Assembly (NCBI GenBank): GCA_049472215.1
Contig: JBLIRH010000002.1
Span: forward strand, 23,815 to 87,814
Length of the DNA: 64,000 nt
Source of the DNA: Thermoplasmatota archaeon
GTDB lineage: Archaea; Thermoplasmatota; Penumbrarchaeia; Penumbrarchaeales; Penumbrarchaeaceae
Direction: 5' to 3'
Part shown: piece after piece, positions 12,732-57,479 of the stretch
Layout: each line of letters opens with the position of its first letter
Position numbering within the stretch: the stretch's first letter is position 1
Program-made: the position numbers and the translations under genes
The notes under the pieces: generated by a model
Told to the model about the DNA's origin: nothing
Databases searched by the model: none
Seen by the model: only the letters and a program-made list of their open reading frames with translations

Positions 12732-12774
12732 TCCGACTCCGGTATCGTCCCTATCGGATCACCCCTAGGATCAT

Positions 12775-13458: not shown

Positions 13459-13517
13459 TTTCGGAAAATTTCTGATCATATGCCAACTATTATTTTCGTT
13501 TTCCGATAATTAGGAAG

Positions 13518-13530
13518 TTTTTATTATATA
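13518..13530 (+). promoter_or_regulatory. TATA-like box upstream of mini-ORF 13549..13704
   Basis: TTTTTATTATATA is centred about 23 nt upstream of the ATG at 13549. Confidence 0.3.
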
Positions 13531-13548
13531 GAAAACAATGAAATTGTT

Positions 13549-13704: not shown

Positions 13705-13736
13705 GATCGGATTGAAAAACAATTTAACACCAACCG

Positions 13737-15132: not shown

Positions 15133-15183
15133 TGGTCATGGTTCCATTTTAATACCATCTTACCCATACCCGGCCAAGGTGAT

Positions 15184-23964: not shown

Positions 23965-24663
23965 GTGACCAGGACCGCGGATATTAAAAAAGAGGTCAAG
24001 AAGACCTACAACGTCATCGCTCCCCATTTTGCCGCAACCAGGGAAAGGGTATGGCCTCCAACCCGAAGCATCATAAATGAACTCGCTCCATGCAGAATGG
24101 GCGACCTGGGCTGCGGGACCGGCCGGGCCCTGGTTGAAGCTGCAGAGCTTGGCTGTTCCGTAACGGGGATCGATAGTTCTACCGGTCAGCTGGAGATGGC
24201 AAGGAAATTCCTTGAGAGGTCCGGACATCTGGGTGATGCCATATTGATGGAGGGGGACCTTGAAGAACTCCCTCTGGACGACGGGGTCCTTGACCTCTGT
24301 CTGATGATCGCTGCCCTCCACCACCTGCCCGACCGGAAAGCGAGGATCAGGGCGCTCGAGGAAGCTTACAGGGTGACCGCGGACGGAGGGTCCCTTCAGG
24401 TCTCGGTATGGACATGGGACCAGGAGCGGTTTCGCGAGCAACATCTTTCGAGGATCGAAGGACGAAGGGAGCCCGACGAACATGACGGCCCCCTTTCCGG
24501 GGATTTCATGGTTCCATGGAAAAAAGGGGAGGAAGCCATCAGGTTCTATCATCTCTACGGACCTGGAGAGCTTGAAGAGGAGGTCTCATCCACGGGATGG
24601 ACGCTCCTGAGGAGCTTCTTCGACGGAAGGAACCACTGGGTGGAATGCCTCAAAGCCCCCTGA
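23965..24663 (+). CDS. Class I SAM-dependent methyltransferase (Trm9-like pattern)
   Basis: DLGCGTGR is motif I. LCLMIAALHHLPDRKARIRALEEAYRVTADGGSLQVSVWTWDQERF resembles Trm9/ALKBH8-type methyltransferases. Confidence 0.7.
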   Translation: MTRTADIKKEVKKTYNVIAPHFAATRERVWPPTRSIINELAPCRMGDLGCGTGRALVEAAELGCSVTGIDSSTGQLEMARKFLERSGHLGDAILMEGDLEELPLDDGVLDLCLMIAALHHLPDRKARIRALEEAYRVTADGGSLQVSVWTWDQERFREQHLSRIEGRREPDEHDGPLSGDFMVPWKKGEEAIRFYHLYGPGELEEEVSSTGWTLLRSFFDGRNHWVECLKAP

Positions 24664-37892: not shown

Positions 37893-38240
37893 TTACCTCT
37901 TGCAGGACATCCTTCCCTGCTCAACCATATCCTCGGCATACCCGAGCCGGCCGGCCTCCTTTATCCTTCTCAGGCTCTCGTTCCTGTTGGAGCGAAGGAC
38001 GAAGGAAATGGTCCTCGCAAAGAAATTGTTCAGCTTTGCGCAATCCTTCGGATCAGAGAATTCGGCACAATCGGCACAGGTGGAATACCCGTGCTCCATG
38101 TTGCACGTTCTCACCTGGCACCAGGTCGCCTTCTCGTTCTTGGCACAACCCGGACACCTGCCGTTCTTGAACTTGCCGCATTCGCCGCAGTAGAGCCCGC
38201 AGAATGCAACAAGATCGGCGTTCGCTAATTTCTCGGCCAT
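37893..38240 (-). CDS. Cys-rich DUF3795-like protein
   Basis: FCGLYCGECGKFKNGRCPGCAKNEKATWCQVRTCNMEHGYSTCADCAEF matches the DUF3795 cysteine pattern. Confidence 0.6.
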   Translation of the reverse strand: MAEKLANADLVAFCGLYCGECGKFKNGRCPGCAKNEKATWCQVRTCNMEHGYSTCADCAEFSDPKDCAKLNNFFARTISFVLRSNRNESLRRIKEAGRLGYAEDMVEQGRMSCKR

Positions 38241-39257: not shown

Positions 39258-40556
39258 TCACTTCTCGACGATCTTCACCATGTGGGTGGCACATGAGATG
39301 CAAGGATCATATGCCCTTGCGATGAGCTCCATCTTGTTTCGGAGCTCCTGCTTTTCCAGCCCCTGGTCGCTGAGGAGCTTTCCGACCTTCTTCATGTCCT
39401 GGTCGATGATCAGATTGTTGATAGCGGTGGGGGTGATGATATTGGCATCGGTTATCATGCCTTCTTTGTCGATCCAATATTCATGATAGAGCGTCCCCCT
39501 GGGGACCTCCAGCGAACCTATTCCATGGCTCTCCCTGGGCTCCACCTTCATGGGCTTCTCATCCTTTATCCCCAGATACAGCAATCTGTCGATGAGCTCC
39601 ATCGCGCGTTCCCAGGCATAGATACACTCAAAGGCCTGGCCCAGGTTGTTGTGAAGTATGTTGTTCGATGGGAACGGGAAGAAGATATCCTTCGCCTCGA
39701 GGATGTGGGGGTGCCTGAACTCCTTCATGATGTTGAGCCTGGAAAGCGATCCCACCATCACGGCGTCCCCCCCGGAGGTCTTGCTCACCTTCGCTGTGGA
39801 CCATGGGATGATCTCCTCCTTGATCACCTTCCGGTAATCGGAGAGAGGGAACCTCCTGTCGTCAAGTGCGATCATGTCGCCCATCAACGTGAACTCGTCA
39901 TTTTCGGAGGAGACGAGCGTGGAATACGGAGCTGTCAGCTCCATCTCCGAGGGATACGACAACGATGAGAACAACCTGTAGGCCTCGACAGTATCCTTCA
40001 CGTTCTCCCTGAGCTTGTCTCGAAGCTCCACGAGCTTCCTTCTCGATGGGATCCCAGTGAAACCTCCGATTATCGGTTTCTCGGGATGTATCGGCCTGCC
40101 GCCGATGAGCTCCTGGATGTCGTTCCCGATCCCCTTCAGCTTCAGCGCCCTGTTGACCTCGACGGGATGGTCCTTGTAGAGGGCTATCGCGTTGGGCATC
40201 CCGAGATAGTCCGGCAGCGCAAGGAAATATGTGTGGAGATAGTGGCTCTCAAGGATCGATCCCATGTGTATGAGCTCCCTTAGAAGCTCCGTCTGCTCCG
40301 AAACCTCGACCTCGAATGCCTGCTCGATCGCTTTTATCGATGCAAGCTTGTGGGAAACGGTGCATATGGCGCATATCCTGGTCACTATGGAGGGAACATG
40401 CCTGAAGTATTTGCCCCGGACCAGGACCTCGAAGAACCTGGGACCCTCGGTGATCGAGAAATTTACATCCTTTATCCGGTCACCGTCGAATTCCAGGAAT
40501 ATCTCCCCGTGCCCTTCGACCCTGGCGACCGGCTCTATCTCTACGTACTTCTTCAC
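39258..40556 (-). CDS. [NiFe]-hydrogenase large (catalytic) subunit, group 3-like
   Basis: 432 aa. The N-terminal ARVEGHGEI and RICAICTVSH (nt 40350..40379) and the C-terminal DPCISCATH (nt 39282..39308, checked on the DNA) supply both CxxC pairs that ligate Ni-Fe. Only 7 aa (MVKIVEK) follow the His. The GTG start overlaps the upstream stop (GTGA). Confidence 0.9.
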   Translation of the reverse strand: MKKYVEIEPVARVEGHGEIFLEFDGDRIKDVNFSITEGPRFFEVLVRGKYFRHVPSIVTRICAICTVSHKLASIKAIEQAFEVEVSEQTELLRELIHMGSILESHYLHTYFLALPDYLGMPNAIALYKDHPVEVNRALKLKGIGNDIQELIGGRPIHPEKPIIGGFTGIPSRRKLVELRDKLRENVKDTVEAYRLFSSLSYPSEMELTAPYSTLVSSENDEFTLMGDMIALDDRRFPLSDYRKVIKEEIIPWSTAKVSKTSGGDAVMVGSLSRLNIMKEFRHPHILEAKDIFFPFPSNNILHNNLGQAFECIYAWERAMELIDRLLYLGIKDEKPMKVEPRESHGIGSLEVPRGTLYHEYWIDKEGMITDANIITPTAINNLIIDQDMKKVGKLLSDQGLEKQELRNKMELIARAYDPCISCATHMVKIVEK

Positions 40557-41245
40557 TGGTCATCCCTCCTTGATCCGGCAAGATGCTCCATGACCTTCTT
40601 TCCTTCCTCGGAGTAGGAGAAGAGCTTGATCAGATCGATCACGTGGTCGAGGTTGATCCCGTACTTCGTGTAATCCCTGACCGCGAACTTGATGAGGTCC
40701 TCGTGGAATACGACCCCCCTGCAGCCGATACAGGTCGAACCGTTCCTCGTGCAGTAAGCGTTGCACCCGGAATATGTGAGAGGTCCGAGACAGATGTTTC
40801 CCCGGTAAAGGTTGCAGGATTCTCCCTGAAGTGGACACATAGCGCATACGACCGTTGCTGACAGGTCAAGGTCCCTGCAGAGAGGAACATACGGGCAATC
40901 TCCCGATGTCGGGCAGTCCCGGCAGCTCTGCTCGTGCTGGGACATTGTCAGCTGAAGGATCGTCCTCCTGAGATCGTAGAGCTTCCTCGAATTGGTATGG
41001 ATGATCATGTTCTCCCTGATGGGGGTCTGGCAGGATTCCCTGATGATCTTCGACTTCCCCTCCCCCAGTTCCACCAAGCACATCCTGCAGTTCCCGGTGT
41101 TCAATTTCCCGAGCACCGGATTGTAGCAGATGTGGGGAAGCTCCACTCCCCTCTCAATGCAAAGCTGCAGTATGGTCTGGCCGGGTTTCCCGAAATACTC
41201 CTTGCCGTCAATGACCACCCTCACCTTCTTCTCCACCATCGTCAT
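40553..41245 (-). CDS. HoxU/NuoG-N-terminal-like Fe-S protein fused to the medial/distal-cluster half of a group 3 [NiFe] small subunit
   Basis: 230 aa. The [2Fe-2S] motif is C40..C53xxC56..C72 (HICYNP...GNCRMC...ESC). The His-ligated [4Fe-4S] is HEQSCRDCPTSGDC (Hx3Cx2Cx5C). Then follows VCAMCPLQGESCNLYRGNICLGPLTYSGCNAYCTRNGSTCIGCRG, with 8 Cys in the CLGPxTxxGCxAxC...CxGCxG pattern of MvhG/FrhG/sulfhydrogenase-delta C-termini. Confidence 0.8.
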   Translation of the reverse strand: MTMVEKKVRVVIDGKEYFGKPGQTILQLCIERGVELPHICYNPVLGKLNTGNCRMCLVELGEGKSKIIRESCQTPIRENMIIHTNSRKLYDLRRTILQLTMSQHEQSCRDCPTSGDCPYVPLCRDLDLSATVVCAMCPLQGESCNLYRGNICLGPLTYSGCNAYCTRNGSTCIGCRGVVFHEDLIKFAVRDYTKYGINLDHVIDLIKLFSYSEEGKKVMEHLAGSRRDDQ

Positions 41246-42988
41246 CTACTCCACCTCCTCGACGGGCTTGTCGAAGGGGCCCATCCTTTCAAGCTCCTTG
41301 TAGAGCCTGGCTTTCAGGATCTGGTTCGACCAGTGGATAGCTCCCTGATTGTAGTTCTTCATCCTATTGATGCGGTCCTCGATGACACTTGGGTCCGTAT
41401 TGGGATACTGACCGCCTCCGGTGATGCACCCCTTCAGGCACGGAATGAACTCCACGAAATCGTAATCCTCGATATTGGAGAGAACATTGTCCGCATTGGT
41501 CAGGTCGGTCACCGTCGCGACCTTGAAATGAACGTCGGGATAGTCAACGGTCCTAACCACGGTCCCATCCTCGAGAACGATCTTCTGAAGCACATTCTGC
41601 CTTACCTTCAGGGCCATGGTGTAGTCCACGACCTCGTCCCCGAGCCCATCGGTCGCAGGCGTATCCGCAAGGATATCGATCAACGGCTCCGTCATGACGA
41701 ACCTGTCGAAGGAGACCGTTTCGATATCGCAGAGGTCGACGTTGATGCGGTTCTTCTGGATCAGCCTCGAGACCTCCTTGGTGGAGATCACAGCATCGAA
41801 GTCCGCCATCTTCTTCATGGCAGTGCACGGAGTGATCATTGCCAGGAAAACGGGCCCGTACCTCTTCTCGATCATCTCCCTGGCGATCGGGCCTGGTCTC
41901 GCTTCAAGATCGAGATAGTCCTTGTACTCGAATTTGTGCTTGGTGATCCAGATGTTGGCGGAGGGGCACCACGACATGATCTTGGTCCTTCCCGGATCGT
42001 CCAGCGAATCCTGGACCGTCTTGAATATCGACACATGCTGGGCTGCGGCGAAGTTGAAGACCTTCCACATGCCGAGCTGCTTCAGAGCGACGATGACCTT
42101 CCTCATGAGGGCGTGGGTGTTGTCAGGTTCATCGACCTGAAGGTTCTCAGAAAGTGAGGCCAGGATCATGGGATCGACCAGGGCGACCACGCGCTCTCCG
42201 CTTTTCAGGGCGTTCTCGAGCTTCTTGATGTTGTGTTCCCTCTCCTTCAGGGCCCCGCAGAAGCAGAACTGCACGCACTGGCCGCATGAGATGCAGGTCG
42301 TCCTAGCAAAGGTCGACCCGAAGGGGGTCGAGACCCTTTCCTTCCAGTTCCTGCCCACCATGGAGATCGCCTTTACCCCGAGTCCCTCGTCGCAGACATT
42401 GACGCATCTCCGGCAGGATATGCACTTCTCGGGCAGATAGTTGACCACGGGGTCCTTGATCTCCTCAACATCATCCGGTAACTGCCTGTCGATGGGCAGG
42501 GGGAGCGTCACGTTCTTATGGGGGTCCATGGTAGCGAACTTCTGGAAGTAGTAGATGACCTCGGACTCCCTGACGGGGCAGCCCCTTATGGTGTAATCGA
42601 CCTCTATGAAATAGTCCAGGGGATACGCCTTCTTCAGCGGCGTGGTATTGATCATGGTGGTCCCGTAGACCGCCTTGTAAGCTTCGGAGGCTCCCTGTAT
42701 GTCCTTTCCCGTGGCAACCCCGCCGGATGCAGCGCAGGTCCCTATCCCCACCACCCTTCTCGAGTTCTTCCTGATGTGGTGGAGGACCTCGATATCCTCC
42801 TCGGTCACCACCGCACCTTCCACGAAGGCTATGTCAAGCATCCCGAAATCCTGCCCCGAGGAGGCCATGGAGAATACCCTGATGTCAAGGGATTCGAAGA
42901 TCTCCAGAAGCTCCTCCTCGCAGTTGAGAATGGCCAGCTGGTCGCCGGCGCAGGAAGTGAGACCGAATATGCCGACCTTCACCTTCAT
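41246..42988 (-). CDS. Fusion protein of a [NiFe] small-subunit proximal-cluster domain, a 2x[4Fe-4S] ferredoxin and an [FeFe]-hydrogenase H-domain (with its small-subunit-like C-terminus)
   Basis: ORF 41246..43114 trimmed to the ATG at 42988, which forms an ATGA overlap with the NuoF-like stop. The first ~155 aa (MKVKVGIFGLTSCAGDQ...GIGTCAASGG...IRGCPV) are the Oxidored_q6-type small subunit. CISCRRCVNVCDE and CISCGQCVQFCFC follow. The last ~330 aa align along their length to clostridial HydA (LKQLGMWKVFNF / MSWCPSANIW / ITPCTAMKK / DAVISTKEVSRLI / EFIPCLKGCITGGGQ / RINRMKNYNQ). Confidence 0.8.
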   Translation of the reverse strand: MKVKVGIFGLTSCAGDQLAILNCEEELLEIFESLDIRVFSMASSGQDFGMLDIAFVEGAVVTEEDIEVLHHIRKNSRRVVGIGTCAASGGVATGKDIQGASEAYKAVYGTTMINTTPLKKAYPLDYFIEVDYTIRGCPVRESEVIYYFQKFATMDPHKNVTLPLPIDRQLPDDVEEIKDPVVNYLPEKCISCRRCVNVCDEGLGVKAISMVGRNWKERVSTPFGSTFARTTCISCGQCVQFCFCGALKEREHNIKKLENALKSGERVVALVDPMILASLSENLQVDEPDNTHALMRKVIVALKQLGMWKVFNFAAAQHVSIFKTVQDSLDDPGRTKIMSWCPSANIWITKHKFEYKDYLDLEARPGPIAREMIEKRYGPVFLAMITPCTAMKKMADFDAVISTKEVSRLIQKNRINVDLCDIETVSFDRFVMTEPLIDILADTPATDGLGDEVVDYTMALKVRQNVLQKIVLEDGTVVRTVDYPDVHFKVATVTDLTNADNVLSNIEDYDFVEFIPCLKGCITGGGQYPNTDPSVIEDRINRMKNYNQGAIHWSNQILKARLYKELERMGPFDKPVEEVE

Positions 42989-44283
42989 GACCTGCCACCT
43001 CCCATGGGACAGACCTTTGAAGGGCACTCTCCGCGGATATGAGAGTCGAAGACCTCCCTGAAATTGTTGTAGGCGGAGGAGAATGGGGTGGAAGCCGTCT
43101 TTCCAAGGCCGCAAATTGAAGCGGTGTCCATGACACCGGAGATCTCCATCGCCCGCTCAAGCTCCCCGTCCTTGGCTTTGCCCGTTCTCAACCTCTCCAA
43201 TATCCTTGATACGTGATGGGTCCCGGTCCTGCAGGGCGTACACTTTCCACAGCTCTCGTGTGAGAAGAAACCCATGAGATTGTGAGCGATATCAACAACG
43301 CAGCTCTTCTCGTTGAAGACCACGATCACCCCCGATCCCAGGGTGAGGCCGTCGGCCTCCGCATCCTCCATGGAGAACTTCGTCTCCAACCTCTCTTTGG
43401 GTATCAGCGAACCGGATGCGCCCCCGAGGAGCACGAAACCGATCTCCTTTCCGTCCACCCCGCCGCCGAGGTCGTTGATGATATCCATCAACGTGCATTT
43501 ACCCATTTCAACCTCGTAGGCACCTGGAGACTTGACATGCCCCGTCAGGGAAACGATCCTCGTCCCCGTCGATTGGGTTGTTCCTATTGACCTGTAATTG
43601 TCCCCGCCCTCCATGATGATGTAGGGGACGTTGGCAAGGGTCTCAACGTTGTTGACACAGGTGGGTTTATCGAACACACCCGAGACCGAGGTCCTTGTTA
43701 TCTTTATCTTGGCCTGGCCGGCCATCCCCTCGATGGATTGGAGGATCGCGGAAGATTCACCGCAGACATATGCCCCTGCACCCTTTACGACCTCGATCTC
43801 CAGATCGAAGTTCTTTCCAAGGATCCCCTTACCGAGAAGGTTGCGGTCCTTTGCCGTCTGAATGATGGACCTGAGCTTTGGGGGAAGGAAAGGGTATTCC
43901 CCGCGATTGTAGATGAAGGCCTTTTCGATGCCCATCGCATAGGCCGCGATCGTCATTCCCTCGATCAGGAGGAATGGGTCCGTCTCCACCAGCGTCCTGT
44001 CCTTAATAGTGCCCTCCTCGCCCTCGTCGAAGTTTGCAATGAGGTACTTCGGTGTTTTGTTCTGCATGGCCACTGATTCCCATTTGAAGCCGGCGTGGAA
44101 CCCGGCCCCTCCCCTTCCCCTGATGCGGGATTTCGAGACCTCGTTCACGACCCACCTTGAACCTTTATCAAGGGCTTTCTTCAATGCCTCGTAACCGCCC
44201 GCGCTGATGTAATGGTCGATGTTCCACCCGTCGTAACCGCCCCTTCCACGGTTCTTCAAGAGGATCCTGGTTTCCTGGACCAA
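42985..44283 (-). CDS. NuoF/HoxF/HydB-like NAD(P)H-binding FMN and [4Fe-4S] subunit
   Basis: GRGGAGFHAGFKWE is the FMN site. ANFDEGEEGTIKDR, GAGAYVCGESSAILQSIEG, ESCGKCTPCRTG and ICGLG supply the N3-type cluster. The TTG start abuts the upstream TGA. Confidence 0.9.
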   Translation of the reverse strand: MVQETRILLKNRGRGGYDGWNIDHYISAGGYEALKKALDKGSRWVVNEVSKSRIRGRGGAGFHAGFKWESVAMQNKTPKYLIANFDEGEEGTIKDRTLVETDPFLLIEGMTIAAYAMGIEKAFIYNRGEYPFLPPKLRSIIQTAKDRNLLGKGILGKNFDLEIEVVKGAGAYVCGESSAILQSIEGMAGQAKIKITRTSVSGVFDKPTCVNNVETLANVPYIIMEGGDNYRSIGTTQSTGTRIVSLTGHVKSPGAYEVEMGKCTLMDIINDLGGGVDGKEIGFVLLGGASGSLIPKERLETKFSMEDAEADGLTLGSGVIVVFNEKSCVVDIAHNLMGFFSHESCGKCTPCRTGTHHVSRILERLRTGKAKDGELERAMEISGVMDTASICGLGKTASTPFSSAYNNFREVFDSHIRGECPSKVCPMGGGRS

Positions 44284-44763
44284 TCACTCACCCCCCTTTC
44301 TCAGATCCTCGATCAGCTGGATCGCCTTTCCAATGTCCAGGTTGCGGTGGACGTCGTGATCGATCATCATGGCAGGTGACCCATCACACTGGCCGATGCA
44401 CGAGCTTTCCTCCAAAGTGAACAAGCCGTCGGCCGTGGTCTCTCCCTCCTTTATGGATAGGTGACCGCTGATGCCTGCCATGAGGTCCTTCGATCCCTTG
44501 CCGTGGCAGACGACACCGCGGCATAGCCTGATGACATGCTTTCCTTCCGCTTTCAATGTGAATTGTTCATAGAAGGTGACTACCGAATATATCCGCGTCA
44601 AGGGGATCTCAAGAGCATCTGCGATGTACCTTGCTGTCTCCCAGGTGATGCAGCCCCATGTCTCCTGGATCTTGTGAAGAAGAAAAAGCACTGGGGAATC
44701 GAGTCCCTTCGCCTCAGCCAGCAATCCGTCCAGAACCTTTATGTCCTTGACCCCGATCACCAT
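44284..44763 (-). CDS. NuoE/HoxE/HydC-like thioredoxin-fold [2Fe-2S] subunit
   Basis: 159 aa. IRLCRGVVCHGKGS ... ESSCIGQCDGSPAMMID gives the Cx4C...Cx3C pattern of NuoE-type [2Fe-2S] proteins. Confidence 0.85.
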   Translation of the reverse strand: MVIGVKDIKVLDGLLAEAKGLDSPVLFLLHKIQETWGCITWETARYIADALEIPLTRIYSVVTFYEQFTLKAEGKHVIRLCRGVVCHGKGSKDLMAGISGHLSIKEGETTADGLFTLEESSCIGQCDGSPAMMIDHDVHRNLDIGKAIQLIEDLRKGGE

Positions 44764-44847: not shown

Positions 44848-45957
44848 TTAGCATATCCTTGGGACCGGATCCCCGTAGGGCGGGTCCATGATCCGCTTTC
44901 CGCCTACGACCGTCTGAAGGATCACGTTCTTCCCCTCGGGCCCCACGATCCCGATCACTGCGGCATCCTTACCCGCCTCCGTCCTTCTTATCGCTTTGAG
45001 GACCTCATCCTCGCTTCCCGGAGCAACGGCGAGGATGACCTTGCCCTCGTTCCCTATCTCGAAGGGATCGAACCCGAGCATGTCGCAGGCACTCGAGACA
45101 GCTTCCTTTACGGGGATATCGGATTCCCTGACCAGGATAGAGCACCCGCTCTTGGAGCACCATTCGTTCAATCCGTTGGCCAGCCCGCCCCTTGTCAGGT
45201 CCTTGGCGGCAATAACGCCTCCTACGTCCAAGGCGGCCTCGATCACTTCCCCCATCGGAGCGAGGTCGGAGACCAGGTCGGTTTCGAAACCGTAGCCCTC
45301 CCTGAACGAGAGCAGGGATATTCCATGGTCCCCCACGGACCCGGAAAGAATGATGATGTCCCCTTCCCGGACCGCATCGTCCCTCAGCCATCGGGAAACA
45401 GGTGATCTGGCCCCCCGCTTCGATCTAAGCTCTGATGCTCGTTCGAAGTTCCGTTGCAGAGCCGGATGCATCTCTCCGATACCGGCAGTGGTTATGACCA
45501 TCCCCTTCACCCCTCCCTTCTCCACGACCTTCGTGTCCCCCGTTACCACGGTTACATGGGCCCTTTCAGAAGCAATTCCGATCGACCCCGAGATCCTGCG
45601 GAGGAGTTCTTTATCGGTCCCTTCCTCGATCACCATCGATAGTGCGAGGGCTTTAGGCCTTGCCCCGACGACCCAGAGGTCATTCACAGTTCCAAAGACC
45701 GAGAGGGACCCAATATCCCCCCCGGGGAATTCGAGAGGCCATACGGTATGACCGTCGATGGTAAAGGCGACATTATCAATGACGGCGGAATCGTCCAGGA
45801 GTTCCGGCGGGACCCCTTCCCGGTCTTCGCCTCCCGATGACCTTCTAACGAAGGGGATCACGAGCTCCTTCAGCATCCTCTGCATCAGCTCGCCTCCTGC
45901 GCCCTCGCCGATCTTGACCTTCCTGTCACCGTTCATAAGTGGCCCCAAAAAGCTCAT
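44848..45957 (-). CDS. hypE: [NiFe]-hydrogenase maturation protein HypE (carbamoyl dehydratase)
   Basis: It has an AIR-synthase-like fold and the diagnostic C-terminus ...PPYGDPVPRIC. The N-terminal IGEGAGGELMQRML resembles the E. coli HGSGGQAMQQLI. The start is ATG 45957 or 45936. The ORF-track GTG at 45996 lies inside the upstream gene. Confidence 0.85.
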   Translation of the reverse strand: MSFLGPLMNGDRKVKIGEGAGGELMQRMLKELVIPFVRRSSGGEDREGVPPELLDDSAVIDNVAFTIDGHTVWPLEFPGGDIGSLSVFGTVNDLWVVGARPKALALSMVIEEGTDKELLRRISGSIGIASERAHVTVVTGDTKVVEKGGVKGMVITTAGIGEMHPALQRNFERASELRSKRGARSPVSRWLRDDAVREGDIIILSGSVGDHGISLLSFREGYGFETDLVSDLAPMGEVIEAALDVGGVIAAKDLTRGGLANGLNEWCSKSGCSILVRESDIPVKEAVSSACDMLGFDPFEIGNEGKVILAVAPGSEDEVLKAIRRTEAGKDAAVIGIVGPEGKNVILQTVVGGKRIMDPPYGDPVPRIC

Positions 45958-45967
45958 GTGGAACTGA

Positions 45968-48900
45968 CTAATCACCTTTGCGGTCCCTTCTGACACGGAA
46001 CGTGAAGAAGAGGTAGCCGCCGAGGCCGATCAGCGCTATCGCCGATACTATTGAGATAACTATTATCATCATGCGCTCACCGGAGGAGCGTCCACCATTG
46101 GAAACGATCCTGAACATATCCGAGATGTTCATCGTTCCACCATAGGTCCCGTTGAGGGTCTGGGCCTCTATCTCCAGAGCGATCAGGAGCTCTTCATCGA
46201 GTTTGAGACCTTCGGGCAGCTCTATCGTGATCCGTCCGTTCGACCTTGGTCCGATCATTATGTTCCTCTCTCCGGGAAGGGACATCGTCCCGACCTCGCC
46301 TGTGATCGTGAAACGAAGGATCAGGGGACTGTCGTTCTCGAGGGTTATCTCAAGATACGGTATCTCGGTGTCTATATTTCTTTCAGGTTCGGAGAAGACC
46401 GCCCTCCATGGCATATCGCCCCAGCCCCAGAGGGAGACAATAACATAGATCGTATCGAAGACAACATTACCTGCCCGGTCCTCAACTTTCAGGTCGATCC
46501 TGTGCTCCCCGGGGCTCAGGTCCCTTACCGTTCTCATTATCGACTGGGTGCTGATATGGATCACACCATCCTTGTCCGATGTCCATGTGACGTTCAATAT
46601 GTCGCCGTTTGGCATGTCAGGATCATACCCGGATGCCTCGAAGACGATCAGTGATCCCGGAAGAAGAACGCTTCCGTTCACCGGCTGAACGATGGAAACG
46701 TCTCGGGGAGGGTCTTCGACGGGCTCGACGATCACTCCGATAAGGTAGAATGCTTTCTCTTCGCCGTCCGATACGGAGATCTGAACATATCCTTCCCCCG
46801 CCTGGTCCTCCTCCGGCACTATCCAGAGGAGCCCGTCAGCGATCGTAGCCTTGAAGGGGAAGTATTCGGTGATGGCGAACATGAGCTCGTCCCCGTCTGG
46901 GTCCTCGAAATCATTCAAAAGGTCGCTGTACAAGGGACCTTCGTCCTCCACCATGTAAAGCACAAGTTCGCTGCCCCCGAAGATCGGCCTTTGATTGTTG
47001 TGGGCGGTGGTTCCGAAGATTATCCCGGACAGTTCGGACACGGGGCCGTCATCATCGACCGAGGCCATGACATATTCGTAGGTCGTGTTATCCGAAAGGC
47101 CCATGTCCTCATAGAACGGGACCGATCTGGAGAGCCTTGTTATCTCCTTGAAATCCTCATCCCCGGGATCCCTCCGATAGATGATATATCCCCAGATATC
47201 CTGGGTGAGAGGGGGGTCCCATTCGATGACAAGCGTGTTATTGCCGCGGGCCCTTGCCTCGATGTTCCTCGGGGGGCCGGGGGGTATGATGTCCACTGGG
47301 ATTCCCTTTATGATATCCGTACTATCCGAGGTCGATCCGGCATGATCAATGGAGACCATCCGGAACGAATACTCCTCACCGTTCTGGAGGCCCCTCACGA
47401 TGATGGCGTTGTCAGGATAGTAGACGATTATCGGATTGAATTCAGTCTGTCCCTTTTTCACGTAGATCAAGGCCCGGTACAGGTCCTCCCCTACCCAATC
47501 CCATTCCAGGGAGATGGCCTTGCCCTCGGGGATCGGTTCCAGCCTGAAGTTCCCCGGGGGGAGGGGTTTCTGGTCCACGTCCACCTGTGTAGTATTGCTC
47601 CACCCCTTCGATCCTACATCATTGTATGCCCTGACCCTGAAATACTGCGTGGTGTTCTCGTTCCCGTACACAGGCAAGAATGCATCCCGGGTGGACCAGG
47701 AAACGAGCTTCGATGAGAAATCCTTCGAGTTCGAACGCTGTACGATATATCTAGATCCTTCATCCGTCCAGCTGAGGTCCACCCTGTCAGATCCCCTCTC
47801 GTAACTGGATCCCAATTTTGGTATGTCCGGCATATCCCAGTACCTGTCCATCATGAGGGGGTAGGGATCACGTGCAAGAAAGGGGATGTCGGTATCTCCG
47901 ATGCCGTCACCCGGCTTTCGACCGTTGGAGCCGTCATCTTCTCCGGTGTATGAATCGTAATAATTGCCCTCGAGGGAAGTGGAGTTGTACCAGGTGGAGA
48001 GGGGGGGGCCGGTTGCCACCTTCTCGTTGTCGATGAAGGAGTTGTAGAATATCCGGGAATCCTCGCCCTCGTCGATCGCCTCCTTGTTACCTATGAACCT
48101 GCTGCGGGTGATGATGGAGTTGAACGGGTCTTCAAGTCCCTTGTCGCAATCGATGAACTCGGAATCCCTGACGACGCCGTTCGAGAGGTCCTTCACCGTC
48201 ACCATGTTCCTGAATGTGCTTCCGTGGATGGTCGATGTACTGGTGGAGGAAAGCTCAATTCGCCCCCCCTCTACCTGCGTATCTATCAAAGATAGATTCT
48301 GTGAAGATACCAATTGAATTGAATTATTGATGAGCCTGGAATCAATTAAAGTGACCTTGTCGATCCTGACATCCAATCCCACGGTACAATTCGATACGGA
48401 AAAGCTCTTGTAGACATTCCTGCCCAGCAGTATCGCACCCTTGCCGTAGTTGGATATCGAGACCCTGGTCATCGGCGTTGAGTAAAAGGGGATTATCGCG
48501 GTTCCCGTTCCGCTGCCCTTCATATCCAACCCATCTATCGCCGACCCCCATTCCATGTTCTTAATTGTGCAGTTCAACATTCGCACATCTTCGAATTCCA
48601 GCTTTCCCCATGTGAGATCGAAACCTTGGATGTAGGAGCGGTTGATGGTAAGGGAGGATGGCACATTCCTTACACCCTGAAGAGCGATCGTTGACGAGGG
48701 GGCCCCAGACGGCAAGAACAATATGCGGGAGCTGTCATCGGGGGTGTCAGCATCGCCGTCGAGATCGGTCGCGTTGAGATACCCATAGTTCAGTATCCCG
48801 ACATCTTTCATCATAAGAGAGGAATTTATCAGGGAAATATGGCCGCCGTTCGTGATACCGATATTCTCAACGACCACCGTTGAGTTCTTGATCGTGAGGT

Positions 48901-49105
48901 GATCGATCACTCCGATACCCTGACCGCAAAGAACCGATAGGTTCTCCCAGGTGACCGGGCCGGTCGATGCATTCACCATGAAGGTTTCGTTGAACTCGAG
49001 ATCGTATCCCGACCATGTTCGTCCCTGTACCGAACCCGTTGGTTCTAACTGGGGGACCGAAACCAGCAGAATGAGGGATAACAGCACTATACGAACTCTT
49101 TCCAC
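45968..49105 (-). CDS. Giant cell-surface protein with a right-handed beta-helix, two FN3 domains, cadherin/Ig-like modules and a C-terminal TM anchor
   Basis: 1045 aa with a signal peptide (IVLLSLILLVSVPQLEP) and beta-helix repeats in the N-terminal half. FN3 units are PPGNFRLEPIPEGKAISLEWDW...YSFRMVSIDHAG and PPRNIEARARGNNTLVIEWDPP...YEYVMASVDDDG. The TM helix is MMIIVISIVSAIALIGLGGYLFF, followed by RVRRDRKGD. Confidence 0.7.
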   Translation of the reverse strand: MERVRIVLLSLILLVSVPQLEPTGSVQGRTWSGYDLEFNETFMVNASTGPVTWENLSVLCGQGIGVIDHLTIKNSTVVVENIGITNGGHISLINSSLMMKDVGILNYGYLNATDLDGDADTPDDSSRILFLPSGAPSSTIALQGVRNVPSSLTINRSYIQGFDLTWGKLEFEDVRMLNCTIKNMEWGSAIDGLDMKGSGTGTAIIPFYSTPMTRVSISNYGKGAILLGRNVYKSFSVSNCTVGLDVRIDKVTLIDSRLINNSIQLVSSQNLSLIDTQVEGGRIELSSTSTSTIHGSTFRNMVTVKDLSNGVVRDSEFIDCDKGLEDPFNSIITRSRFIGNKEAIDEGEDSRIFYNSFIDNEKVATGPPLSTWYNSTSLEGNYYDSYTGEDDGSNGRKPGDGIGDTDIPFLARDPYPLMMDRYWDMPDIPKLGSSYERGSDRVDLSWTDEGSRYIVQRSNSKDFSSKLVSWSTRDAFLPVYGNENTTQYFRVRAYNDVGSKGWSNTTQVDVDQKPLPPGNFRLEPIPEGKAISLEWDWVGEDLYRALIYVKKGQTEFNPIIVYYPDNAIIVRGLQNGEEYSFRMVSIDHAGSTSDSTDIIKGIPVDIIPPGPPRNIEARARGNNTLVIEWDPPLTQDIWGYIIYRRDPGDEDFKEITRLSRSVPFYEDMGLSDNTTYEYVMASVDDDGPVSELSGIIFGTTAHNNQRPIFGGSELVLYMVEDEGPLYSDLLNDFEDPDGDELMFAITEYFPFKATIADGLLWIVPEEDQAGEGYVQISVSDGEEKAFYLIGVIVEPVEDPPRDVSIVQPVNGSVLLPGSLIVFEASGYDPDMPNGDILNVTWTSDKDGVIHISTQSIMRTVRDLSPGEHRIDLKVEDRAGNVVFDTIYVIVSLWGWGDMPWRAVFSEPERNIDTEIPYLEITLENDSPLILRFTITGEVGTMSLPGERNIMIGPRSNGRITIELPEGLKLDEELLIALEIEAQTLNGTYGGTMNISDMFRIVSNGGRSSGERMMIIVISIVSAIALIGLGGYLFFTFRVRRDRKGD

Positions 49106-49529: not shown

Positions 49530-50993
49530 TCATGGACCGGGAGTGGGTTTTCTACCCCTTCTTCCCGAGATCATAAGGACGGCGAAAAGTAAGACCATTA
49601 TTGTCCCGGCCGAACAACCAACGATCAGCCAGAAACCATTTCCGGGGCCTTCTTTCTTGTTCTGGTCAGGTTCGACCGGAACATCATCGTCGACAGCGTC
49701 CCCCTTATCGAATGCCACTGGGTATTCGTCCGTGGCATTCGCGATACCGTCGATGATATAGGGGTCGTCAACGATGCTGTCGTTGTCATGATCCGGGCCC
49801 CAGTGGTCGGACCAGAGGTTCCCTTCGGTCCCTTCGTACCAGCTGTTGGACTCCCCGTTGTCCATAGCCTGGAAACCCTTCGGGCCGTTATCGTAGAATC
49901 TATTTGCATAGACCATGTTATGCCTGGATGGAGGACCCCTCCCCAGCCATGTGTCGATGGTGACAGCATGCCACGTTCCGTTGGAGAAAACGTTATGATG
50001 GACCATCGCTCCATCGGTCGAATCGAGGTACACGGCGTTCTCGTTCCCTTCGAAGTCCGAACCGGTTATTGCGATGCCGCTGGAATCGCTCAGGAACACA
50101 CCATATGTGTTCTTGTAGAAATTGCATTTCGATATGATAGAATCTGATGCAGCGGAGAGCTGGATGCCGTTGGTGTTGTAACGGATCGAGGTCTCCTCGA
50201 TCGAGGAGTTGGCGATACTCATCATGAATATGCCGTTGTTGTTCGTATCTATGTAGGACCTCGCTATCCTTATCCCGCTGGAAACGATCGACCCGTTCGA
50301 GGTCTCAGAAATTATTCCGAAGCCGTAGTTCAAGGTTGTAGTAGTGTCTATTATTTCCACCTCGCTGGAATCGACCAGATGTATTCCGGCTGTGAGTCCC
50401 AATATGGCTGTGTTCGATTCTGCTATAACGCTGCTGATGGTCACGTTACGGGACATGTTCACCAATATCCCGTTCTCCACGTTGACCTTGCAGAGGACCC
50501 TTTCTATGGAAATGCTCCTGCCCTGGACATATACCCCATCGTAGGAGCCGAAGAAACCCGAATCACCGATCCAGATGCCTGAACAGTTTCGGACCTCGAC
50601 CCCCCTAGTGCAGTAATATGTCGCCACGTTCCTGACCCTGACATTGGTGGAGTTCTCGATAAGGATGCCCGGGTGCTTTGGGAGTTTCCCGTTCACGAAA
50701 AGGTTGTAATCCACCACCACGTGTCTTGTAGAGTTCCTGATGACCACCCCCGGGGAGGTCGTGGTATTGAACCAGAAACCGGAGATCAAGTACGGATCGT
50801 CCAAGGTTCCGTTGCCGGTCACTCCCTCAGGAAGCTCCCCTGTGAAATTTGAATCGTTGATATGGATAGGGCCGTGGAGCTTCAATAATGGACCCTCGTC
50901 ATCCTGTCCGGAAACGATGCCATGGAACGATAGGATGATAACCAATGAGAACAAGGCCAGCAGAGATCTAGAAAGTTTGCCCATTGATCGCAC
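49530..50993 (-). CDS. Surface-anchored right-handed beta-helix protein (NosD/PbH1-repeat type)
   Basis: 487 aa with a signal peptide (LLALFSLVIILSFHGIVSG). It has about 10 PbH1-like repeats (VRNVATYYCTRGVEV, ISKCNFYKNTYGVFL, ITGSDFEGNENAVYL, VHHNVFSNGTWHAVTI) and a TM helix (FWLIVGCSAGTIMVLLFAVLMI). Confidence 0.7.
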   Translation of the reverse strand: MRSMGKLSRSLLALFSLVIILSFHGIVSGQDDEGPLLKLHGPIHINDSNFTGELPEGVTGNGTLDDPYLISGFWFNTTTSPGVVIRNSTRHVVVDYNLFVNGKLPKHPGILIENSTNVRVRNVATYYCTRGVEVRNCSGIWIGDSGFFGSYDGVYVQGRSISIERVLCKVNVENGILVNMSRNVTISSVIAESNTAILGLTAGIHLVDSSEVEIIDTTTTLNYGFGIISETSNGSIVSSGIRIARSYIDTNNNGIFMMSIANSSIEETSIRYNTNGIQLSAASDSIISKCNFYKNTYGVFLSDSSGIAITGSDFEGNENAVYLDSTDGAMVHHNVFSNGTWHAVTIDTWLGRGPPSRHNMVYANRFYDNGPKGFQAMDNGESNSWYEGTEGNLWSDHWGPDHDNDSIVDDPYIIDGIANATDEYPVAFDKGDAVDDDVPVEPDQNKKEGPGNGFWLIVGCSAGTIMVLLFAVLMISGRRGRKPTPGP

Positions 50994-53011: not shown

Positions 53012-55570
53012 TCATCTTCTGTCGACCGGCTGGAACCTGGGAGCGGACTGCGGCGGAGCGCCGCCGCCCCCGTAAGAGTACTGCACCGGATACTGTGTTT
53101 GTCTCGGAGGTTCCCTCTTCCTCCTGGACCTGGATATCATGAACCCGGACAGGGCCAGAAGAATGAATACCAGGAGAATTACCAGGAATATGATGGCTGT
53201 CGGACCTATGCCTGTCTGCCTTCCCTTGACATCCGTGGAGGAGGATGGTATGTCGATGATCAGCTGAACGGTGGCAGTATCGGTCCCGCCTCCGTAATCG
53301 TATACGGTCACCTGGATCTGGTAGGTGCCGTTCTCGAGATCGGTGACAGACGGAAGCTCAAGGGTGAACTCCAGATCGTCAGCGGCAACATCCGGGTCCA
53401 CGCCGTCGTTCAGCATCTCGATCCCCGAGCCGCCGCCGATGGACCTCAGATCGGCAATGACGATCTCGATGTCACCGAGGCCGTCGGGGTCCTCTATGAG
53501 CGCGTAGAGTATGATCCGCTCTCCGGAGGTGTTCGAATTGATAACCCCTGGCTCCACCGATACGAGGCTGATGACCGGCGGGGAGTTGATCGACTCCTCC
53601 CTCACATCGATCTCCAGCGACCTCGAATCGGTGCCCCCTTTGCCATCCAGGACGGTCACGGTAACCCTGTCCATCACGGGCTGGGAGGGGGCCTGGTAGA
53701 TCACCTCGTCCCCGGTTCCCTCGATCGTTCCCCTTTCGGCATCGTAATCGTACTCGAGTTCGTCCCCGTCCTGATCTATTGCGACGACCCGGAGGTTGGT
53801 GGTCCCATCGACCGTGAGCACGTTCTTGCCGGCCTTGAACGAGGTGATCACCGGGGGTCTGTTCGGGAGACCCTCCTGGACCATGACGAAGGTGGAGGCC
53901 GTATCCCTGCCTCCGGAAGGGTCCGAAACGGCCAGATTGAAGTAATATTTTCCGGGTTCGGAGGGTGCTTTCCAATCCCACAGGGGGCCTTCCCCTGTCA
54001 GTGTACCGTCGTCCACCGTCAAAGAATATGTAAGCGGCTCCTCGTCGATATCGGCTGCGACGGCCCTCACCCTGCAGGTGGATCCCGCAGTCGTAACATT
54101 GGGTTCGACGGCGAAATACGTTATCTCGGGCCTGTGATTGACGGGGACATAGGTCAATGACGTCTTCACCGCGTTGTAAGCGTCCAGCATTCCATAGCCA
54201 TACTGGGTATTATAAGTTGGAGAAAGGTCCCTGTCATAGGGCTCTCCCCTGGCCTCGGACGTCTGATGAAGTATCATCGAGATGTGGTTGGTCCTGTCCG
54301 TAGGTGCCAGAGAGGACTTTGCCTGAAGCATCAGTGCAACCGTTCCCGAAACATGTGGCGTCGCATAGGAGGTCCCGGACCCGGTCGACCATCCGCTGGC
54401 CCCCTGGAGCCGCGAAGTCCTGGAGGATGAAGCGAAGGATATTCCTACACCCGGGGCAACGACATCGGGCCTCATCTCGTCATAGGGATTGGTGTCTCCG
54501 TCATCGGTCCTCGGTCCGTAGGTTGAAGAGGCCCAGTACTCGTCATCGGACCTGTCGATCGTGTCCTGGTCGCTCACCGCCCCCACGACTATCGACCGGT
54601 CCGCCCAGGTCGTTCCCGCACCGGATGCGTACTGGGACCCTGAATTTCCCGCTCCCTGGACCACGACGATCCCCTGCACGGTAAGCTCGTCCATTGCCTG
54701 CACTACAGCACCATTATTGTTTCCCACACCGAGGCTCAATGATACTATGTCGACACCTGTGTAACCCGTGTCGCCCCAAACGGTCTCCCTGTTGTCCGAG
54801 CACCATTGGAAGGCATCCATGAGGCTGTTCTGGTTGAGGGTGATGCCGCTCTGGCCTATTATCTTGATATCGATAAGGCCCGCTGCGGGCGCCACCCCTT
54901 TATGGGACCCGTCCGCGTCACCCCTCCCAAGGGCGATCGAAGCGACCCCGGTCCCGTGCCCCGTCCTGTCGTCCGGATCGAAGCTTCCGTCGTCGGGATT
55001 GAGGGGGGTGTTAATCGGTGCTGTAAAATCGACCCCGGCCACGAAGGCGTCCTGGAATGTTGGATGCTCGTTATCGACACCAGTATCCAGGACCGCAATG
55101 GTGACTCCTCTTCCGGTCATCCCGAGTTCCCTGGCGGTCCTCGGGCTGTACTCGTCTGACGGATTCGCCTTTATCGCCGCTGTGGAAACGTCCATCAACG
55201 TTCTGACAGTATCCTGCTTCTCGATCCTGACGATACCTGGTATTGATAATGTCGATTCCAGTTCTTCGAATGAATCATATCTGACCGAGATCACCGGAAC
55301 GATGTCATAGGCGTTCCATACCTCGCCTCCCTTCAAGGTGATGGCTTCGGATGCTCCCTCGATATATGACCGGTCTCGAAAATGAACAAATGTCCAGGCC
55401 GGATAGGTTGCTATATATTGATTGCTGAGCTCCATGTCGATATCGATGATGCGAAGGCCGGGGAAGAGATTGGAACTTTCATCATTTCTACCCGATACGT
55501 GGAGAAGACCCGCCATGCTGAGCATCATCACGAAAAGGATCGGCATCACGAACTTCCTTGCACCGGACAT
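53012..55570 (-). CDS. Membrane-anchored subtilisin-like serine protease (peptidase S8) with Ig/PKD-like repeats
   Basis: The catalytic triad blocks are TIAVLDTGVDNEHP (Asp), GHGTGVASIA (His) and GSGTSYATPHVSGTVALM (Ser). Four Ig-like repeats follow (e.g. LTYSLTVDDGTLTGEG, LEYDYDAERGTIEGTG). The TM helix is AIIFLVILLVFILLALSGFMI, with a cytoplasmic tail. Confidence 0.85.
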   Translation of the reverse strand: MSGARKFVMPILFVMMLSMAGLLHVSGRNDESSNLFPGLRIIDIDMELSNQYIATYPAWTFVHFRDRSYIEGASEAITLKGGEVWNAYDIVPVISVRYDSFEELESTLSIPGIVRIEKQDTVRTLMDVSTAAIKANPSDEYSPRTARELGMTGRGVTIAVLDTGVDNEHPTFQDAFVAGVDFTAPINTPLNPDDGSFDPDDRTGHGTGVASIALGRGDADGSHKGVAPAAGLIDIKIIGQSGITLNQNSLMDAFQWCSDNRETVWGDTGYTGVDIVSLSLGVGNNNGAVVQAMDELTVQGIVVVQGAGNSGSQYASGAGTTWADRSIVVGAVSDQDTIDRSDDEYWASSTYGPRTDDGDTNPYDEMRPDVVAPGVGISFASSSRTSRLQGASGWSTGSGTSYATPHVSGTVALMLQAKSSLAPTDRTNHISMILHQTSEARGEPYDRDLSPTYNTQYGYGMLDAYNAVKTSLTYVPVNHRPEITYFAVEPNVTTAGSTCRVRAVAADIDEEPLTYSLTVDDGTLTGEGPLWDWKAPSEPGKYYFNLAVSDPSGGRDTASTFVMVQEGLPNRPPVITSFKAGKNVLTVDGTTNLRVVAIDQDGDELEYDYDAERGTIEGTGDEVIYQAPSQPVMDRVTVTVLDGKGGTDSRSLEIDVREESINSPPVISLVSVEPGVINSNTSGERIILYALIEDPDGLGDIEIVIADLRSIGGGSGIEMLNDGVDPDVAADDLEFTLELPSVTDLENGTYQIQVTVYDYGGGTDTATVQLIIDIPSSSTDVKGRQTGIGPTAIIFLVILLVFILLALSGFMISRSRRKREPPRQTQYPVQYSYGGGGAPPQSAPRFQPVDRR

Positions 55571-56936: not shown

Positions 56937-57479
56937 ATGCCGCGCTGGGATGTCCACCTTAGCTTCGGTTTAATGGCGTTCATAGTCATATTCTCAGCTC
57001 TGCTCATGGGTTCCAGCGACGGGCGCTCCCTTGAAGGATATGCTCGCGCAGCTGTATTGTTCGGCATCGTAGGGCTGCTTGGAGGAGGCGCCCTGGTCTT
57101 CGGGTCGGTCCTTCCGGACATCGACGGGAAGGGGAAGGTCCGGTGGATGGTGGGTCCTGCCGTCGGCGCTCTGCTTTTCGTACCACCCCTTATCGGAACC
57201 TTCAGGAGCGGGGGGCCGAGCGGAGCAATGGAGTTTATCGAGGGAACAGGATCGCTTCTCTTCCTTCTGGGAACTGTTGTCGGTTATCTGCTTCTGCTCG
57301 TTCCCACGAGGCACAGGGGAATACTGCATAGCAAATGGACCTGCGCAGCATACGGAAGCGTCTGGGGAGTATACGTCTTCTACACCGCATCCATGGCGTT
57401 CGATCAGTCCATGATGATAGGCTCGATGGGAGCTCTGGGGTATGGATGGCACCTGGCCCTTGACGGCAGGTTACTCTAG
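56937..57479 (+). CDS. Polytopic membrane protein (possibly a DUF457-type membrane-bound hydrolase)
   Basis: 180 aa with five or six hydrophobic helices. His residues lie near the N-terminus (WDVHLSFG) and the C-terminus (GWHLALDG). Confidence 0.4.
   Translation: MPRWDVHLSFGLMAFIVIFSALLMGSSDGRSLEGYARAAVLFGIVGLLGGGALVFGSVLPDIDGKGKVRWMVGPAVGALLFVPPLIGTFRSGGPSGAMEFIEGTGSLLFLLGTVVGYLLLLVPTRHRGILHSKWTCAAYGSVWGVYVFYTASMAFDQSMMIGSMGALGYGWHLALDGRLL

Follow-up and report, generated by a model that had tools for sequence, protein, structure and literature searches.

We analyzed a 64,000-nucleotide stretch of DNA from a Thermoplasmatota archaeon (contig JBLIRH010000002.1, positions 23,815 to 87,814 of the forward strand), which we refer to as the window and in whose own numbering all positions are given, and focused on a minus-strand gene whose product joins parts of two different hydrogenases: the small subunit of a [NiFe] hydrogenase (HyhS) and an [FeFe] hydrogenase (HydA). 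The window is archaeal; CDP-archaeol synthase and geranylgeranyl reductase genes lie within it, and orthologs of the fusion, 95, 92, 85, and 74% identical, are found in Thermoplasmatota metagenome-assembled genomes. Five genes that abut or overlap (39258-44763, minus strand) make up an operon; the fusion gene stands third among them, cotranscribed with the other four and probably coupled to them in translation:

44284 to 44763, minus strand: HydC, a NuoE-like thioredoxin-fold [2Fe-2S] subunit (Pfam 2Fe-2S_thioredx, E = 1.8e-42)
42985 to 44283, minus strand: HydB, a NuoF-like subunit of 432 residues for flavin mononucleotide (FMN) and NAD(P)H (Pfam Complex1_51K, SLBB, and NADH_4Fe-4S)
41246 to 42988, minus strand: the HyhS-HydA fusion gene, 580 residues (Pfam Oxidored_q6, Fer4, and Fe_hyd_lg_C)
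40553 to 41245, minus strand: the HydD conduit subunit, 230 residues (Pfam Fer2_4 and NADH-G_4Fe-4S_3)
39258 to 40556, minus strand: HyhL, a group 3 [NiFe] large subunit of 432 residues (Pfam NiFeSe_Hases)

The window protein is a new member of a recently described family, the group F hybrid hydrogenases, since it combines the HyhS-HydA fusion, the four companion genes, the four cysteine ligands of the H-cluster (mapped below), and an archaeal host. Group F [FeFe] / group 3f [NiFe] hybrids, a surprise when reported in 2024, were defined by Greening et al. (Cell 2024; PMC11216029) as the fusion with four contiguous genes, and were found in 21 archaeal genomes, Thermoplasmata included; our literature search found no follow-up biochemical or structural paper on the group. 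The clade is named here by its architecture. What the window adds to this family is an operon of the long-H-domain type, clean and complete, whose diaphorase is a minimal NuoF-like one. A first-pass annotation of the same DNA, made from the letters alone and centered on the H-domain, was partly right in its interpretation and overlooked both the [NiFe] small-subunit fusion and the NuoEFG-like operon.

Domain layout of the fusion and its operon

The ATG at 42986-42988 is almost certainly the real start of the fusion gene, overlapping the stop codon of the preceding gene as ATGA, and all four fusion orthologs (L001-L004) begin with the same MKVKVG. A mechanically called open reading frame (ORF) at 41246-43114, with 622 residues from a TTG at 43114, is an over-extension, ruled out by the ATGA overlap and by the ortholog starts. 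From this start, the protein divides into three parts:

42494 to 42988, minus strand: residues 1-165, the N-terminal half of a [NiFe] small subunit of group 3, matching P. furiosus SHI delta
42251 to 42436, minus strand: F-domain with two CxxCxxCxxxC motifs (C189/192/195/199 and C232/235/238/242) for two [4Fe-4S] clusters
41354 to 42205, minus strand: H-domain with the [FeFe]-hydrogenase catalytic-domain fold (residues 262-545; Pfam PF02906)

One polypeptide here carries the half of a group 3 [NiFe] small subunit that binds the proximal cluster, an F-domain with two [4Fe-4S] clusters, and a full-size [FeFe] H-domain. Pfam places Oxidored_q6 (55-191) and Fe_hyd_lg_C (308-567) on a single ORF, and HMMER matches the same chain to SHI delta (9e1j; fusion residues 2-163, E = 3e-26) as well as to TmHydA (E = 2e-32). 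In searches against all Protein Data Bank (PDB) chains, residues 175-540 align in one piece to solved [FeFe]-hydrogenase catalytic subunits, namely TmHydA (7p5h, at the E value just given), TkHydA1 (8a6t), and CpI (E about 1e-20), and the F-domain is spanned by a single unbroken alignment to TmHydA 130-505. The H-domain covers the full Pfam profile Fe_hyd_lg_C (PF02906; 2-245 of 245, E = 1.5e-22). In the HyhS part, the proximal-cluster ligands are C13, D16 (replacing the second Cys), C85, and C137, of which the three cysteines are invariant in the family alignment A1. The D16 codon lies at 42941-42943 on the minus strand, and the motif there reads SCAGD, not SCxGC; Asp or Glu takes the place of the second proximal-cluster Cys in the window protein and in P0003, P0004, P0005, and P0007, and Cys is present in the other family members. 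A proximal cluster with three Cys and one Asp is known from F420-reducing hydrogenase.

The remaining half of the small subunit is found in the next gene. HydD residues 9-126 correspond to TmHydA 2-114, a HydA/NuoG-like part with a [2Fe-2S] and a His-ligated [4Fe-4S] cluster, and residues 132-222 correspond to SHI delta 162-255 (E = 4e-13), the half of the [NiFe] small subunit that holds the medial and distal clusters, with eight cysteines; the Cys and His patterns of HydD amount to one [2Fe-2S] and three [4Fe-4S] clusters. Because HydD consists of the N-terminal part of HydA/NuoG and the C-terminal part of HyhS, and the fusion of the N-terminal half of HyhS and the F- and H-domains of HydA, the [NiFe] small subunit and an M3-type HydA have each been cut at a domain border and recombined reciprocally across the two genes. 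The two hydrogenases are hence domain-swapped over two adjacent genes and not simply fused, and the electron chain of each would pass through both polypeptides, an arrangement absent from the accessible text of PMC11216029. HyhL has both of its metal-binding motifs intact (RICAIC at 40362-40379 and DPCISC at 39291-39308), and its best solved relative is SHI alpha (E = 1e-74).

The operon occurs in at least two types, which differ in HydB. The window HydB is a NuoF core that aligns to residues about 102-524 of the 584- to 630-residue Bfu-type HydB; by Pfam and by this alignment, it has none of the N- and C-terminal iron-sulfur (Fe-S) domains of bifurcating HydB and no GltD-like domain. Bfu-type HydB (structures 7p5h and 8a6t) has an extra N-terminal [2Fe-2S] domain and an extra C-terminal domain with two [4Fe-4S] clusters. 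A long-clade relative with 33% identity (L007) shares both the gene order of the window and the short HydB (L007 2906-4147), so that the window type, in these two loci, reads HydC, short HydB (413-432 residues), fusion, HydD, and HyhL. In a member of the short-H-domain clade (L005), the order is fusion, HydC, HydB, HydD, and HyhL, followed by a second [NiFe] hydrogenase cluster, and HydB (11983-15141) is a 1052-residue, glutamate-synthase-like (GltD-like) protein with Fer4_20 and Pyr_redox_2. Since the window HydB is a NuoF core only, the window operon type probably encodes an NAD(P)H-linked, nonbifurcating enzyme, and with two or more operon types that carry different HydB subunits, bifurcation should not be assumed for all of them. 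The "redox valve" role that the original authors suggested for hybrid hydrogenases (PMC11216029) is possible for the window type.

The H-cluster pocket and its conservation

The residues that hold and surround the H-cluster lie at the following positions:

41960 to 41977, minus strand: motif L1, MSWCPS (M338-S-W340-C341-P-S), with W340 at 41969-41971 and C341 at 41966-41968
41807 to 41833, minus strand: motif L2, TPCTAMKKM (T386-P-C388-T-A-M391-K392-K-M394), with K392 at 41813-41815
41408 to 41452, minus strand: motif L3, EFIPCLKGCITGGGQ (E513-F-I515-P-C517-L-K-G-C521), by translation and alignment
42173 to 42175, minus strand: D272, at the CpI A230 position in the loop adjoining the [2Fe] subsite, invariant in the fusion family

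Translated, the minus strand gives SWCP at 41963-41974, TPCTAMKK at 41810-41833 with the last Met at 41807-41809, and PCLKGCITGGGQ at 41408-41443, preceded by EFI at 41444-41452; the L2 and L3 peptides had been read correctly in the first-pass annotation, with intervals a few bases too short for them. Residue equivalences were taken from HMMER alignments against all PDB chains and from a 79-sequence MAFFT alignment; CpI 145-519 was rebuilt from the alignment, and its numbering agrees at 18 of 18 literature positions. On this scale all four H-cluster cysteines are kept, as had been proposed, with C341, C388, C517, and C521 corresponding to CpI C300, C355, C499, and C503, the last being the bridging Cys in CpI. 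Given the Pfam and HMMER hits and the superposition of an AlphaFold model on TmHydA and CpI, the motifs do not match by chance, and the condition that would have overturned the first reading, namely cysteines lying outside the H-cluster pocket, did not hold. The model (residues 178-580, 70 homologs) reached a predicted local distance difference test score (pLDDT) of 88 and a predicted template modeling score (pTM) of 0.89, superseding an earlier run on the full fusion with 12 sequences (pLDDT 65, about 30 in the F-domain), and its best Foldseek matches in the PDB are all [FeFe] hydrogenases, with a query TM-score (TMq) of 0.81 for TmHydA and 0.78-0.79 for CpI.

Around these ligands, the pocket departs from that of group A, whose motif definitions (L1 TSCCP, L2 MPCxxKxxE, and L3 ExMxCxxxC) the fusion fails. 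In L1, the Cys before Pro ligates the [4Fe-4S]H cluster and the Cys ahead of it is the proton relay (PMC12138974); W340 occupies the position of this relay residue, CpI C299, and translation and alignment agree on the replacement that the first reading had noticed. In L2, T386, M391, K392, and M394 correspond to CpI M353, K358, K359, and E361, and in L3, I515 and P516 correspond to M497 and A498, confirming that L3 keeps both Cys and exchanges its Met for Ile. The loop D272-P273-M274 is equivalent to CpI A230-P231-S232, and S232, which hydrogen-bonds the proximal cyanide (CN) in CpI (PMC12138974), is Met in the fusion. Farther out along the group A proton pathway (residue list in PMC11803613), two alignments, which are less certain in this region, give Thr or Lys for Glu279, Asp or Glu for Ser319, Asp or a gap for Glu282, and a gap, Ser, or Asp for Arg286, so that E279, R286, and S319 are lost in the window protein and E282 probably is too. 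The claim that the standard proton path is missing is borne out in this way, by the Trp at C299 together with the four outer positions.

The fusion family is rare, because an exhaustive HMMER scan of 1.84 billion representatives yielded only 20 proteins below 1e-30. A word-indexed protein search returned two close fragments with the H-domain alone and 14 sequences, mostly of the short clade, with the family profile. The aligned set holds 24 fusions with all four Cys, comprising 8 with a long H-domain like that of the window protein and 16 with a short one, about 80 residues less. Across these 24, the unusual pocket residues are conserved even among relatives that are just 25-30% identical: the CpI-299 column holds Trp in 23 and Phe once, the CpI-230 column (D272) Asp in all 24, the CpI-353 column (T386) Thr or Ser in all 24, the CpI-498 column (P516) Pro in 23, and the CpI-359 column, four residues after the Cys (K392), Lys or Arg in 22. 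The CpI-358 column is variable (Q, M, Y, L, and H), the CpI-497 column holds I, V, Y, or F, and Glu279, Glu282, Arg286, Ser319, and Glu361 are not conserved. A crude neighbor-joining tree of 23 four-Cys fusions (all but P0155) and 47 unfused H-domain proteins separates the fusions as a single clade. Because the substitutions are conserved across the fusions and the fusions form one clade, the active-site substitutions read as a family signature and not as a one-off: the relay Cys gives way to Trp, CpI-230 is always Asp, and the sole conserved Lys stands at Cys+4. This signature is relevant to the question of which second-sphere features of group A are required for catalysis. In PMC11216029, group logos appear in a supplementary figure and proton-transfer residues are said to differ; the Trp, Asp, and Lys residues are not discussed in its accessible text.

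Two columns deserve comparison with the unfused homologs. The first-pass annotation was right that Met stands at both the Lys358 and the Glu361 positions and that a Lys follows one residue later. The idea that K392 is simply a shifted K358 was rejected, as positions 358 and 359 are both Lys in group A, and 46 of 47 unfused homologs, 21 without Lys358 among them, have Lys in the 359 column. For the same reason, the conservation of K392 alone is no proof of CN binding. In the CpI-230 column, an acidic residue is present in 10 of 19 unfused homologs without Cys299 versus 1 of 27 with it (n = 46; Fisher p = 2e-4, not phylogenetically corrected).

Several members of the wider set depart further. 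Six HyhS/H-domain fusions of 446-472 residues (P0016, P0017, P0021, P0023, P0026, and P0030) have lost the C300-equivalent Cys as well as the Trp, their motif being IVPASxAE, whereas the equivalents of C355, C499, and C503 are still present, as is GGGQ; their H-domain looks further degenerated. Five unfused HydA proteins of about 480-590 residues (P0040, P0067, P0077, P0084, and P0094) have TSCSPGW or TSCSPSW as L1, with Ser in the column of the ligand Cys300 and Cys in the relay column. A 4122-residue protein (P0041) matches the L3/C-terminal part of the H-domain at eight separate places and could be a repeat protein or an artifact of assembly or gene calling. The family is under-annotated, because its public names are uninformative ("4Fe-4S binding protein" or "coenzyme F420-reducing hydrogenase gamma subunit" for the P0004 cluster, P0157, P0163, and P0183, and "NADP-reducing hydrogenase subunit HndD" for fragments) and because Pfam does not detect the H-domain of the short clade; members are thus easily overlooked. 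The points from the family comparison leave the classification of the window protein unaffected.

Possible roles of the H-domain

The H-domain is under strong purifying selection, to the same degree as the HyhS domain. Against the 95%-identical ortholog (dS 0.95), the H-domain has a ratio of nonsynonymous to synonymous substitutions (dN/dS) of 0.031 and the HyhS domain one of 0.033, the corresponding values against the 92%-identical ortholog being 0.036 and 0.022; the L1, L2, and L3 motifs are identical in four orthologs save for conservative changes. The suggestion that the domain is a relic comparable to NuoG, in the sense of a decaying remnant, is therefore ruled out by an H-domain dN/dS of 0.03 together with the conserved unusual pocket residues. 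Purifying selection of this kind is compatible with catalysis and with a [4Fe-4S] or structural role alike.

Among the three options put forward at first reading (divergent catalytic site, sensor, and relic), the divergent catalytic site is the best supported, and we lean toward it, with moderate confidence: the H-domain would be a second, slow H2 site with a noncanonical proton route. The evidence for catalysis comes by homology from Th1, a group F fusion that, once loaded with the synthetic [2Fe] azadithiolate ([2Fe]adt) cofactor, evolved H2 about 5% as fast as CrHydA1 (PMC11216029). As we picture it, Fe-S chains would wire the two H2-activating arms of the complex, one [NiFe] and one [FeFe], to a single FMN/NAD(P)H site. 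In the H-domain, [4Fe-4S]H is bound via C341, C388, C517, and C521, and the bridging C521 most likely accepts the [2Fe] subsite. Its pocket is a conserved alternative to that of group A, with a bulky Trp for the relay Cys, the invariant D272 near the diiron site, a sole conserved Lys at Cys+4, and Thr and Ile in place of both Met residues. Since Trp is unable to relay protons and the pocket is altered, the Cys299-Glu279-Ser319-Glu282 route is unusable and a different one required; protons may reach the adt amine by way of D272 or water, which would make for a slower and perhaps biased catalyst. D272 is a candidate for the replacement proton relay, or for a new partner of K392 now that Glu361 is gone, because it is invariant, lies in the diiron-lining loop, and belongs to a column where an acidic residue goes with the absence of Cys299 in unfused homologs. 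In CpI, the C299D variant keeps 30-80% of the activity, with the carboxylate bridging the adt amine and a water chain (PMC6226526).

Several observations weigh against catalysis at this site. In the group A scaffold, the loss of Cys299 alone abolishes activity, CpI C299A and C299S retaining <1% (PMC6226526). K358, whose Lys in group A binds the distal CN, is not conserved, nor are S232, M353, and M497, and the equivalent of CpI 405-445, the source of the pocket residue F417, is badly modeled (pLDDT 56-67). A second group F enzyme, Th2, was barely active (PMC11216029), and Th1 and Th2 may both belong to another clade than the long-H-domain one of the window. Furthermore, HydE, HydF, and HydG are all missing from the 64-kb window, where none of 47 Pfam-scanned ORFs, covering most of its length, is a radical-SAM protein or a HydF-type GTPase, and the full maturase set occurs in just 5 of 130 archaeal genomes with [FeFe] hydrogenases (PMC11216029). 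The absence of HydEFG from the window and the scarcity of maturases in archaeal genomes leave the native assembly of the [2Fe] subsite unexplained.

Some of these facts also speak for an alternative, in which the H-domain holds only a [4Fe-4S] cluster in vivo and no diiron site, its empty pocket filled or closed by the Trp, and serves as a redox node or scaffold of what would in function be an NAD(P)-linked [NiFe] hydrogenase; activity with the synthetic cofactor would then reflect an in vitro capacity and not the native function. Besides the missing maturases, the side chains that secure or adjust the diiron site in group A have mostly been exchanged (C299, K358, E361, S232, M353, and M497), and P0016, P0017, P0021, P0023, P0026, and P0030 have lost the C300-equivalent Cys yet keep the domain. 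The solved [NiFe]-HydABCSL (7t2r/7t30) has a HydA-like subunit, of which the Fe-S part alone matched our query and which is set against a "true" H-cluster domain in PMC11216029, and the selection and pocket conservation described above would fit a structural or redox role equally well. On the other hand, Th1 made H2 with [2Fe]adt, so the pocket of at least one family member accepts the cofactor, and PMC11216029 argues that a lack of HydEFG in the host does not keep other archaeal and eukaryotic hydrogenases from being active. The bridging C521 and a full-size H-domain are kept, although the short clade shows that about 80 residues are dispensable, and a terminal [4Fe-4S] cluster on a dead-end chain of F-clusters would have no obvious purpose in electron transfer. 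Weighing these points, we hold a diiron-free H-domain to be rather unlikely. We regard as possible, if doubtful, the broader proposition that group F H-domains of the window type work in vivo without the standard HydEFG-made [2Fe]adt, carrying either [4Fe-4S]H only, in a Trp-closed pocket, or another cofactor from a different route; were this so, the "second hydrogenase" of the hybrid would be a redox or regulatory module.

The sensor option, in which the H-domain would be a slow H2 or redox sensor regulating the attached [NiFe]/diaphorase complex, as in the putatively sensory groups C and D, found no support for the window gene and appears improbable to us. The likeness to these groups is real in that they, too, are without the relay Cys and both Met residues; the group D TamHydS has Ala, Ser, and Leu at C299, M353, and M497, its proton path is altered, and its activity is lower by about 1000-fold (PMC11803613). 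The window protein, however, has no PAS, kinase, or other output domain by Pfam, belongs to a five-gene enzyme operon whose order is conserved in the 33%-identical relative, and is adjoined by no regulator gene. A distant, short-clade relative does carry signaling domains: P0010 (L008 8001-10580; 859 residues) has an N-terminal receiver and histidine-kinase ATPase fused to the HyhS/H-domain module, and its neighbors are response regulators, a Cache/HAMP kinase, and sigma-54 activators, which suggests that this lineage employs the module to sense redox state or H2. This kinase fusion is a single sequence from a different clade (about 30% identity) and is probably bacterial.

The describers of the family also raised the possibilities of a different catalytic cofactor, from a HydEFG-independent route, and of a substrate other than H2 (PMC11216029), in which case the second sphere would reflect other chemistry. 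A pocket that is conserved yet unlike that of all characterized groups would suit such a reading; there is no positive evidence for it, and no candidate cofactor-biosynthesis gene adjoins the operon, whose neighbors are HypE, surface proteins, and housekeeping genes, so that we consider it very unlikely. The one hydrogenase maturation gene found in the window lies directly upstream of the operon:

44848 to 45996, minus strand: HypE-like [NiFe] maturation gene (Pfam AIRS and AIRS_C), taken to be HypE from its two domains, its size, and its position

About 1 kb past the downstream end of the operon, and on its strand, lies the gene for a small, Cys-rich DUF3795 protein (37893-38240, minus strand); an unannotated ORF of 285 residues on the opposite strand separates the two. 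The window is otherwise unusually rich in large secreted or surface proteins with PKD, Big_9, fn3, and CARDB repeats, NosD-like beta-helices, and two S8 subtilases (852 and 1453 residues), their genes lying at 15699-18353, 24650-26833, 28121-30076, 45968-49105, 49530-50993, 53012-55570, and 57471-61832.

Comparison with known hydrogenases

The closest likeness is to the group F hybrids, with which the window protein and its operon share the HyhS-HydA fusion, contiguous HydC, HydB, four-cluster HydD, and HyhL, all H-cluster cysteines, a Thermoplasmatota host, and an identity of about 25% to model hydrogenases. They differ in HydB, which in the modeled UBA147 group F complex has a glutamate-synthase-like domain, whereas the 432-residue NuoF core of the window is without it; the bifurcation proposed in PMC11216029 may hence not be applicable to the window operon type.

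Outside this family, the group A3 HydABC enzymes (T. maritima 7p5h and T. kivui 8a6t) are the closest solved relatives of the F- and H-domain part (E = 2e-32; TMq 0.81), of HydB, and of HydC, and share the NuoE/NuoF-type module. Unlike the window protein, they show the canonical motifs (TSCCP, MPCxxKKxE, and ExMxC) along with the Cys-Glu-Ser-Glu proton path; no [NiFe] subunit is fused to their HydA, and their HydB has extra Fe-S domains absent from the window HydB. On the [NiFe] side, the closest solved relatives of the large subunit and of both small-subunit halves are P. furiosus SHI (group 3b; 9e1j and 9nez) and A. mobile [NiFe]-HydABCSL (7t2r), the latter combining, as the window operon does, a [NiFe] module with NuoEFG-like HydABC subunits. 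Both of these complexes, by contrast, have the small subunit in one polypeptide and no H-cluster domain with four ligating Cys.

In its pocket, the window protein resembles the group C/D HydS proteins (TmHydS and TamHydS), which have likewise naturally lost the relay Cys and both active-site Met residues and have a noncanonical proton path, and which show low activity with a genuine H-cluster (PMC11803613). At the relay position, they have Ala where the window protein has Trp; a PAS domain and an extra [4Fe-4S] cluster follow at the C-terminus, a [NiFe] partner is absent, and the hosts are bacteria. Membership in group C/D was rejected, as neither Pfam nor translation shows a PAS domain or an extra Cys cluster after the window H-domain.

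A parallel to the Trp/Asp pair is an unfused M3-type HydA, P0121 (L009 3557-5305), which has TSWCP, with Trp at the relay position and Asp at CpI-230 as in the window protein. It differs in keeping Lys358, Glu361, and Met497 and in its operon of HydC, short HydB (408 residues), and HydA, which has no [NiFe] parts. Six further unfused HydA-like proteins have Phe at the relay position. A Trp/Asp proton gate formed by W340 and D272 may represent a new [FeFe] active-site environment that the window protein shares with unfused HydA proteins of the TSWCP/TSFCP kind.

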